DNA of 64,000 nucleotides, from NCBI GenBank assembly GCA_934095845.1, contig CAKOKS010000006.1, forward strand, positions 258 to 64,257. The letters run 5' to 3'. The notes beneath the pieces were generated by a model, which did not search any database, was not told the DNA's origin, and saw only the letters and a program-made list of their open reading frames with translations. The position numbers were made by a program, and so were the translations under genes. Positions within the stretch are counted from its first letter, which is position 1; every line of letters begins with the position of its first letter. The DNA comes from an uncultured Bacilli bacterium. GTDB lineage: Bacteria; Bacillota_I; Bacilli_A; RF39; UBA660. This document shows, piece by piece, positions 36,698 to 36,940 of this stretch.

Positions 36698-36728
36698 TGT
36701 TCACAACTCCTTTATTTTTTTCATTTTT

Positions 36729-36756
36729 AGTATATAATACCCCCCCCGATTGTCAA
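36729..36756 (-). promoter_or_regulatory. Sigma-A-type promoter with a G8 tract in the spacer (locus 2).
   Basis: Same sequence as locus 1. C8 on the plus strand is at 36740-36747 and the -35 is at 36751-36756. Confidence 0.6.
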
Positions 36757-36940
36757 ATTTTTCTGTTGAAAAGTTATGGCTTTACAAATTATTTTACACC
36801 GCTTTTTGCAAATTATTTTATGCAATATAAAAAAAATTATGCAATTTATTTTGCATATACTTTTAATTTTTTATTTCTTTTGTTAATATATAATTTATTA
36901 CTTCCTATCTATATTATGTGCAATTATTTTAAAATATACA

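Follow-up and report, generated by a model that had tools for sequence, protein, structure and literature searches.

A hypermutable tract of eight G residues (G8) in the spacer of a sigma-A-type promoter probably sets, by slippage, the transcription of surface-protein genes in an uncultured, low-GC gut member of the Bacilli. The analysis was based on a 64-kb stretch of DNA from this organism (the window, 64,000 nucleotides in full; coordinates are those of its plus strand). [quoted passage not shown] Output would be low or off with G7, intermediate with G8 and maximal with G9, a ranking for which porA and tp0126 serve as precedents alongside the general rule on spacer length, and the outcome would be a heritable and reversible 'volume control'. 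Two transcription units of the window, P4 alone and a p194-P3 operon, carry the cassette, and so do many paralogous loci belonging to a DUF6273 surface-protein family which is very large in the uncultured low-GC Bacilli of the gut. We infer an effect of tract length on expression, reversible change within populations and independent variation of the two tracts; the transcription start of the G8 promoters is likewise predicted from their sequence, some 7 nt past TATACT (near 36722 and 31059 on the minus strand).

The promoter block was present in the window as an exact repeat of 58 nt with 0 mismatches, with copy 1 (locus 1) at 31052-31109 and copy 2, in front of P4, at 36715-36772, both on the minus strand. 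No match to the 58-nt string was obtained in 100 dinucleotide-preserving shuffles, and the identity of about 60 bp which the original prediction had claimed for the two loci was confirmed over 58 nt. At about 91% identity the repeat extended over some 90 nt (31025-31114 and 36688-36777), with similarity ending abruptly on either side. The window has a GC content of 25%, and the only C or G runs of at least 7 nt within it were two C8 tracts, at 31077-31084 (locus 1) and 36740-36747 (P4 promoter), where 0.21 were expected. The genes of both copies lie on the minus strand, and C8 on the plus strand therefore corresponds to G8 on the coding strand. Read on the minus strand, both copies were arranged as TTTTCAACAGAAAAAT-TTGACA-ATCGGGGGGGGTATTA-TATACT-AAAAATGAAAAAAATA-(A/G)AGGAG-N9-ATG, and the core, TTGACA-ATC-G8-TATTA-TATACT, had a spacer of 16 nt with G8 inside it. 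A consensus scan gave each copy a match of 11/12 with a 16-nt spacer and placed both within the top three sites in 13 kb. Copy 2 comprises a UP-like A-rich stretch, the -35 box TTGACA (36751-36756), the G8 spacer, the -10 box TATACT (36729-36734) and a leader of about 25 nt, followed by the AAGGAG of P4, a Shine-Dalgarno sequence read at 36707-36712 and separated by 9 nt from the ATG (36697). The equivalent boxes of locus 1 were assigned by the same scan to 31088-31093 (TTGACA) and 31066-31071 (TATACT), again on the minus strand. In both copies, therefore, the G8 run sits in the spacer between the predicted -35 and -10 boxes.

Other readings of the block were considered and rejected. Further -10 candidates within TATTATATACT would leave spacers of 11 or 14 nt and were discarded. 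Alternative sigma factors (with a sigma-F/G/E-like -10, sigma-54 or ECF) were set aside by eye, as the hexamers of the paralogues keep to the TTGACA/TATAAT consensus, and an invertible promoter was dismissed in the same manner, there being no flanking inverted repeats noticed by eye and no recombinase gene adjacent in the island. An Rfam search of the region upstream of locus 1 gave no match above noise, and the spacer was devoid of dyad symmetry.

The sequences upstream of the two blocks carry further elements, recorded here as separate observations. ATGCAA/TTGCAT motifs recur upstream of the P4 promoter on the minus strand (36698-36940), as ATGCAAAATAAATTGCAT followed by TTGCATAAAATAATTTGCAA, and TTGCAA...TTGCAT is found upstream of locus 1 too; these repeats may be the operator of a regulator. 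A candidate small RNA was located at about 31237-31304 on the plus strand, divergent from the locus-1 promoter, with a promoter of its own at 31202-31230 (TTGCAA-17 nt-TGtTATATT, then AGTGAGAAGCAAAG) and a strong terminator at 31273-31297 with a T run behind it. G8 promoters in L003, L017-L024, L032, L033, L044 and L045 are preceded by this element as well. The 5' half of the element is invariant, its terminator stem has 2 compensatory pairs and the copy in the window bears a 14-nt deletion; it had no match in Rfam.

The genes behind the promoters belong to an island situated between leuS and fpg-polA, in which a gene for signal peptidase I stands beside those of the family. P4 (423 aa; 35426-36697, minus strand) has an N-terminal signal or anchor segment that is basic/charged and hydrophobic, an Ig-like beta-sandwich and, at the C-terminus, a DUF6273 (C-type-lectin-like) head the tip of which is hypervariable, and since an intrinsic terminator (35394-35423, minus strand) follows directly behind it, P4 is regarded as a single-gene unit. 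The first gene after copy 1 is p194 (194 aa; 30450-31034, minus strand), which has an N-terminal membrane segment and no family match. It is followed by P3 (1359 aa; 26368-30447, minus strand), composed of the family N-domain, Listeria-Bacteroides repeats and two DUF6273 domains, the ATG of which lies 2 nt past the p194 stop codon, so that P3 is taken as the distal gene of a two-gene p194-P3 operon. The original prediction that two family members share the promoter was thus borne out directly for P4, but at locus 1 the first gene is p194 and P3 is only second. All five paralogues of the window have an N-terminal module of about 165 aa in common. The remaining three served as comparators, namely P1 (18183-19388), a full-length DUF6273 paralogue 66% identical to P4; P2 (25744-26238), which consists of the N-domain only; and P5 (41196-42554), in which the N-domain is joined to an ALK/LTK glycine-rich domain. 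All three are on the minus strand, and reading of their upstream regions bore out the claim that these are free of a G tract.

The P4 protein family had >7000 matches at E <= 1e-10, almost all of them from human-gut assemblies. DUF6273 adopts a C-type-lectin-like fold and is a target of diversity-generating retroelements (DGRs) in gut-phage receptor-binding proteins (PMC10743442); the IgA protease of Thomasclavelia ramosa also has such a domain, at its N-terminus (PMC12402451). A fold search with the P4 model (pLDDT 69) returned only weak pilin-like Ig matches and the N-terminal region of the Thomasclavelia IgA-peptidase, matches too weak to assign a function to P4. The products of P4 and P3 are predicted to be secreted or surface-located and lectin-like.

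Several other features of the window were noted alongside these genes. The length of P3 varies between strains with identical p194 (1359 aa in the window, 1678 aa in ERZ27287307 and 1245 aa in L044); expansion and contraction seem to affect the repeats inside the protein, both Listeria-Bacteroides repeats and DUF6273 modules, and several contigs end within P3. A c-di-GMP-I riboswitch (RF01051, scoring 62 bits where the gathering threshold is 35) at 34251-34341 on the minus strand precedes a 146-aa gene (33771-34211) and a 716-aa Ig-like/Listeria-Bacteroides-repeat surface protein (31605-33755), and therefore provides a second, signal-dependent control of a surface protein in the same island as the G8 promoters. 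A T-box leader (RF00230, 99.9 bits) was found at 25531-25704, also on the minus strand, upstream of a 116-aa ORF and leuS. Mobile-element genes encode an Abi-like protein (49803-50690), two Mob_Pre relaxases (54424-55770 and 8416-9657), a recombinase zinc-ribbon protein (56023-57063) and a KilA-N protein (4916-5839), and the regions 49803-57063 and 8416-9657 are probably integrated elements. There are tRNA genes at 11953-12039 and 58487-58561.

Tract length was then compared across public assemblies, which were sampled by pattern scans and by exact-protein look-ups with p194, P4, fpg, the signal peptidase and eight P4 homologues. Duplicate contigs were removed before counting, two sequences from the metagenome scan (L005 and L010) were left out as chance matches, consisting of G4 and unrelated sequence, and the tract length of an assembly was understood as the majority length in the sample. 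The 52 independent promoter instances obtained in this way comprised 41 with G8, seven with G7 and four with G9. At locus 1, ten independent assemblies yielded G7 five times, G8 four times and G9 once, and apart from the tract these assemblies were identical in p194 and in the preceding 150 nt. Contigs with 12x and 15x coverage were among those with G7 at this locus, and elsewhere a G9 variant occurred in a 35x contig. The P4 position carried G8 in the window and in ERZ27287307, while in a second strain of the same species (L006; polA 98% and fpg 99% identical) the same chromosomal position carried G7, in front of a different allele. Further loci behaved similarly, with G7, G8 (three times) and G9 at the P0008 locus and both G8 and G9 at the P0022 and P0056 loci. 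Tract length is thus polymorphic among samples with otherwise identical flanks, taken from different people. The original prediction depended on such variation at one or other of the two loci, and it was found at both, with G7, G8 and G9 at locus 1 and G7 and G8 at the P4 position. The presence of both +1 and -1 variants is compatible with reversibility. If G7 does represent the off state, roughly one in two of the populations sampled would not express the p194-P3 operon.

The distribution of lengths at locus 1 followed haplotype, with G8 in haplotype A (three assemblies), G7 in haplotype B (five samples) and G9 in haplotype C. It follows that switching is not so fast as to randomise samples, or that selection holds the state. 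This counts against the switch in its usual form, as it points either to slower switching than at classical contingency loci or to selection. The window-type contig was the only one with both tracts, in the configuration G8/G8; exact look-ups with fpg and the signal peptidase produced no second contig of this kind, the others stopping at the repeated block. The sole hint that the two tracts are independent came from the occurrence of G7 and G8 on L006 and L008, both from one metagenome. Metagenome contigs often end exactly at the promoter block (for example L006, L008 and L058), and the repetition of the cassette explains why short-read assemblies break at these loci.

Pairs of contigs covering paralogous loci allowed the tract to be set against its surroundings. 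L012 and L013 (G8/G9) differed over 2489 nt by 0 substitutions and one indel, which was in the tract, and the same was true of L018 and L021 (G9/G8) over 2269 nt and of L018 and L022 (G9/G8) over 2132 nt; L035 and L037 (G9/G8) differed over 3266 nt by two substitutions and, again, one indel in the tract. Every homopolymer in the same contig sets was used as a control. A/T runs of at least 7 nt (62 tracts) differed in 2/177 comparisons, as against 11/30 for the G8 tracts (8 tract-loci, with at least seven separate events). This difference was significant (Fisher p = 6e-9), in comparisons that are not fully independent, as haplotypes are common to several contigs. An A7 run only 20 nt downstream in the same block never varied. 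Mutation at the tract is thus well above background. Three assemblers recovered the variants, at coverages reaching 35x, and the tract is therefore a real indel hot spot. The slippage-controlled promoter originally envisaged is thereby supported as far as length polymorphism and excess mutability are concerned; the five same-haplotype samples of locus 1, all of them G7, do not sit so well with it.

The cassette was conserved well beyond the window. Twelve distinct loci had TTGA..-.TC-G8-.A.TA-TA...T in common, with unrelated flanks. In the paralogous promoters the hexamers varied (TTGACA/TTGAAA/TTGACT and TATACT/TAAAAT) and TC-G8-TA was kept; as these changes stay inside the consensus, the hexamers are considered functional elements. 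In one lineage, represented by 6 contigs, the tract had decayed to GGTGTAGGG (ATCGGTGTAGGGTATTT) with intact hexamers and a spacer of 17 nt, and a sister contig retained G8. The G residues are therefore dispensable for promoter function, and the 17-nt spacer of the decayed tract would agree with 17 nt as the functional optimum. The 28-nt core, TTGACAATCG8TATTATATACT, was also recovered base-identical at five places in the JABLTK01 contigs of another metagenome, the organism of which has a GC content of 25% and has in common with the window a single protein, about 50% identical. The proteins behind these sites were tried as homologues of the P family, and none was homologous (hhalign probability 0.2%). 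The JABLTK01 sites (L004, L007, two copies in L009, and L011) stand before non-homologous secreted proteins and are preceded by a conserved terminator hairpin (cacggaaaa.ccgtg and a T run). Both L009 copies (10124-10340 and 11652-11866) continue downstream of the core into a short hairpin, a terminator and then another promoter, an arrangement which suggests a short transcript or leader-type control. A scan of viral contigs for the core gave no match. Throughout 334 kb of fetched low-GC sequence, every G/C run of at least 7 nt occurred in this promoter context. In genomes of 25% GC the G run is thus kept only here, which speaks for selection acting on the run itself.

Part of this conservation speaks against a switch, and could be explained if G8 were instead a fixed cis-element of a secreted-protein regulon, serving as a rigid spacer of defined geometry or as the contact site of a dedicated factor, with the +/-1 variants as inevitable slippage noise that is neutral or mildly deleterious. 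The length G8, with its 16-nt rather than optimal 17-nt spacing, is strongly modal, at 41 of the 52 instances and everywhere but locus 1, where length tracks haplotype. The 28-nt core, including the non-G bases of the spacer, is identical at its five places in the distant JABLTK01 organism, before proteins unrelated to those of the window, and the TC...TA of the spacer is invariant over the 12 distinct loci. Mutability alone leaves these non-G bases unexplained, and they may be read by a sequence-specific partner. In contrast, the lineage without the run kept its hexamers and a 17-nt spacer, indicating that the G's are not required; the factor is only putative, and a spacer without dyad symmetry lends it no help. 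A fixed element would also leave unexplained why so mutable a run is maintained at 25% GC, given that a GC-rich spacer free of repeats would do, and G7, the commonest state at locus 1, is an odd choice for a deleterious error. We thus consider a fixed element unlikely.

Two further accounts were weighed. The exactness of the repeat over 58 nt, its abrupt ends on both sides, the breaking of contigs at the block and the frequent mosaic recombination among the paralogues (repeat families D1-D17) would all be expected had a strong promoter recently been duplicated, or spread by gene conversion, between paralogous loci with the G run as an incidental passenger. However, numerous loci and strains, from no fewer than two distant lineages, have retained the core, G runs of at least 7 nt occur nowhere else, and the tract is the sole fast-changing site, which together make this account highly improbable. 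That G7 and G9 are errors of sequencing or assembly at a homopolymer is scarcely credible: although poly-G is troublesome for some Illumina chemistries and two of the G7 contigs were of low coverage (L016 at 3.9x and L006 at 4.7x), variants were seen at 12x, 15x and 35x with three different assemblers, five separate samples of one haplotype all gave G7, and A/T runs of up to 11 nt were stable in the same contigs. Slippage at a hypermutable promoter tract thus remains the preferred explanation.

The cargo of the G8 promoters may be diversified in its own right. The last 35 residues or so (WWLRS...GVSPAF) were hypervariable in P4 (35426-35560), in P1 and in both DUF6273 domains of P3, with a variability of 1.9 bits per column against 0.3-1.1 elsewhere. 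The variable codons of this tip accept any base at positions 1 and 2 and C or T at position 3 (NNY), the third position being C-rich despite a GC content of 25%, a pattern resembling the AAY signature of DGRs. No DGR reverse transcriptase was found among the 30 proteins of the 64-kb window scanned against Pfam, and there was no DGR template repeat in the window; none of the fetched loci contained an Asn-rich copy resembling a template. The variable C-terminus of a DUF6273/C-type-lectin fold is reminiscent of DGR targets in gut phages (PMC10743442); unlike known DGRs, neither a reverse transcriptase nor a template repeat accompanies it in the window or the fetched loci, and the likeness concerns the cargo gene and not the promoter. 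Secreted or surface lectin-like products with a hypervariable tip would, by analogy, be the usual cargo of a contingency locus, which would favour the switch reading. A wider proposal, possible but doubtful, is that of a contingency promoter module conserved across the lineage down to its non-G spacer bases and set before many unrelated secreted proteins, in which a trans-acting partner would read the invariant spacer, tract length would give three levels of output and the DGR-like lectin tips would be added to these. Were it true, the system would have two tiers, determining which adhesins are made and what each of them binds.

While the mechanism as such is known, what is notable here is the host group, the conservation across the family and between lineages, and the pairing with hypervariable lectin heads. 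Literature searches gave no report of promoter-spacer repeat switching for walled, uncultured gut Firmicutes/Bacilli or for the DUF6273 family. In practical terms, the 28-nt signature is searchable and flags candidate switchable surface-protein genes over a family with >7000 members in human-gut metagenomes, and the state of the tract can be read straight from metagenomic reads. The tract could thus serve as an in-vivo readout of selection (by IgA, phage or diet) on commensal adhesins in people, and this readout would extend to the Hadza cohorts, among whom the organisms are frequent.

That repeats in a promoter spacer can bring about phase variation is textbook knowledge in Neisseria, Haemophilus, Treponema and the mycoplasmas, while in gut Firmicutes and Bacilli the focus has been on invertible promoters. 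In Bordetella pertussis, the paralogous fimbrial genes fim2, fim3 and fimX each have a C run in the promoter, located between the site of the activator BvgA and the -10 box, and switch independently to give combinations of serotypes. The fim promoters differ from those described here in their BvgA site, an equivalent of which was not identified at the G8 promoters. In Neisseria meningitidis, porA, fetA and opc have a poly-G or poly-C tract between the -35 and -10 boxes (PMC2791445), and in the porA type changes of one base alter the spacing and lead to high, medium or no expression of the surface protein (PMC2791445; PMC7864442). The G8 promoters are like these in placing a homopolymer of G in the -35/-10 spacer before a surface-protein gene. 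In contrast, however, the tracts of Neisseria, a Gram-negative pathogen, measure 9-14, as opposed to tracts of 7-9 in an uncultured, low-GC, Gram-positive-type gut commensal, and the mode here is 16 nt and not 17 nt, with the effect on expression predicted from spacing.

Treponema pallidum has poly-G tracts in the promoters of paralogous surface genes, tp0126 and tprE/G/J/F/I/L (PMC7864442). That of tp0126 lies between the -35 and -10 boxes, with an optimum at 17-nt spacing, and lengths from 7 to 11 are found together in vivo, one of them being dominant (PMC7864442). The use of poly-G promoters on several paralogous surface-protein genes is thus common to both organisms. Treponema, however, is GC-rich and G runs are common in it, whereas here they are restricted to this promoter; in the tpr genes, moreover, the run overlaps or abuts the -10 box instead of setting the spacer, and there is no homology of gene or promoter. 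A further parallel is offered by the mycoplasmas, in which vlp of Mycoplasma hyorhinis (poly-A) and Vmm of M. mycoides (TA repeats in the spacer) have their tracts in the promoter, and a surface-protein family with a common promoter-leader-signal-peptide cassette, each copy with its own tract, gives rise to combinatorial phenotypes (PMC10502178). The tracts of vlp and Vmm are of poly-A or TA and their products are lipoproteins of wall-less bacteria; in contrast, contigs related to the window encode peptidoglycan genes (MurT/GatD), and signal peptidase I is found by the family genes. Nevertheless, like vlp and Vmm, the G8 promoters belong to a low-GC, Bacilli-related host in which paralogous surface proteins are equipped with a common promoter cassette.
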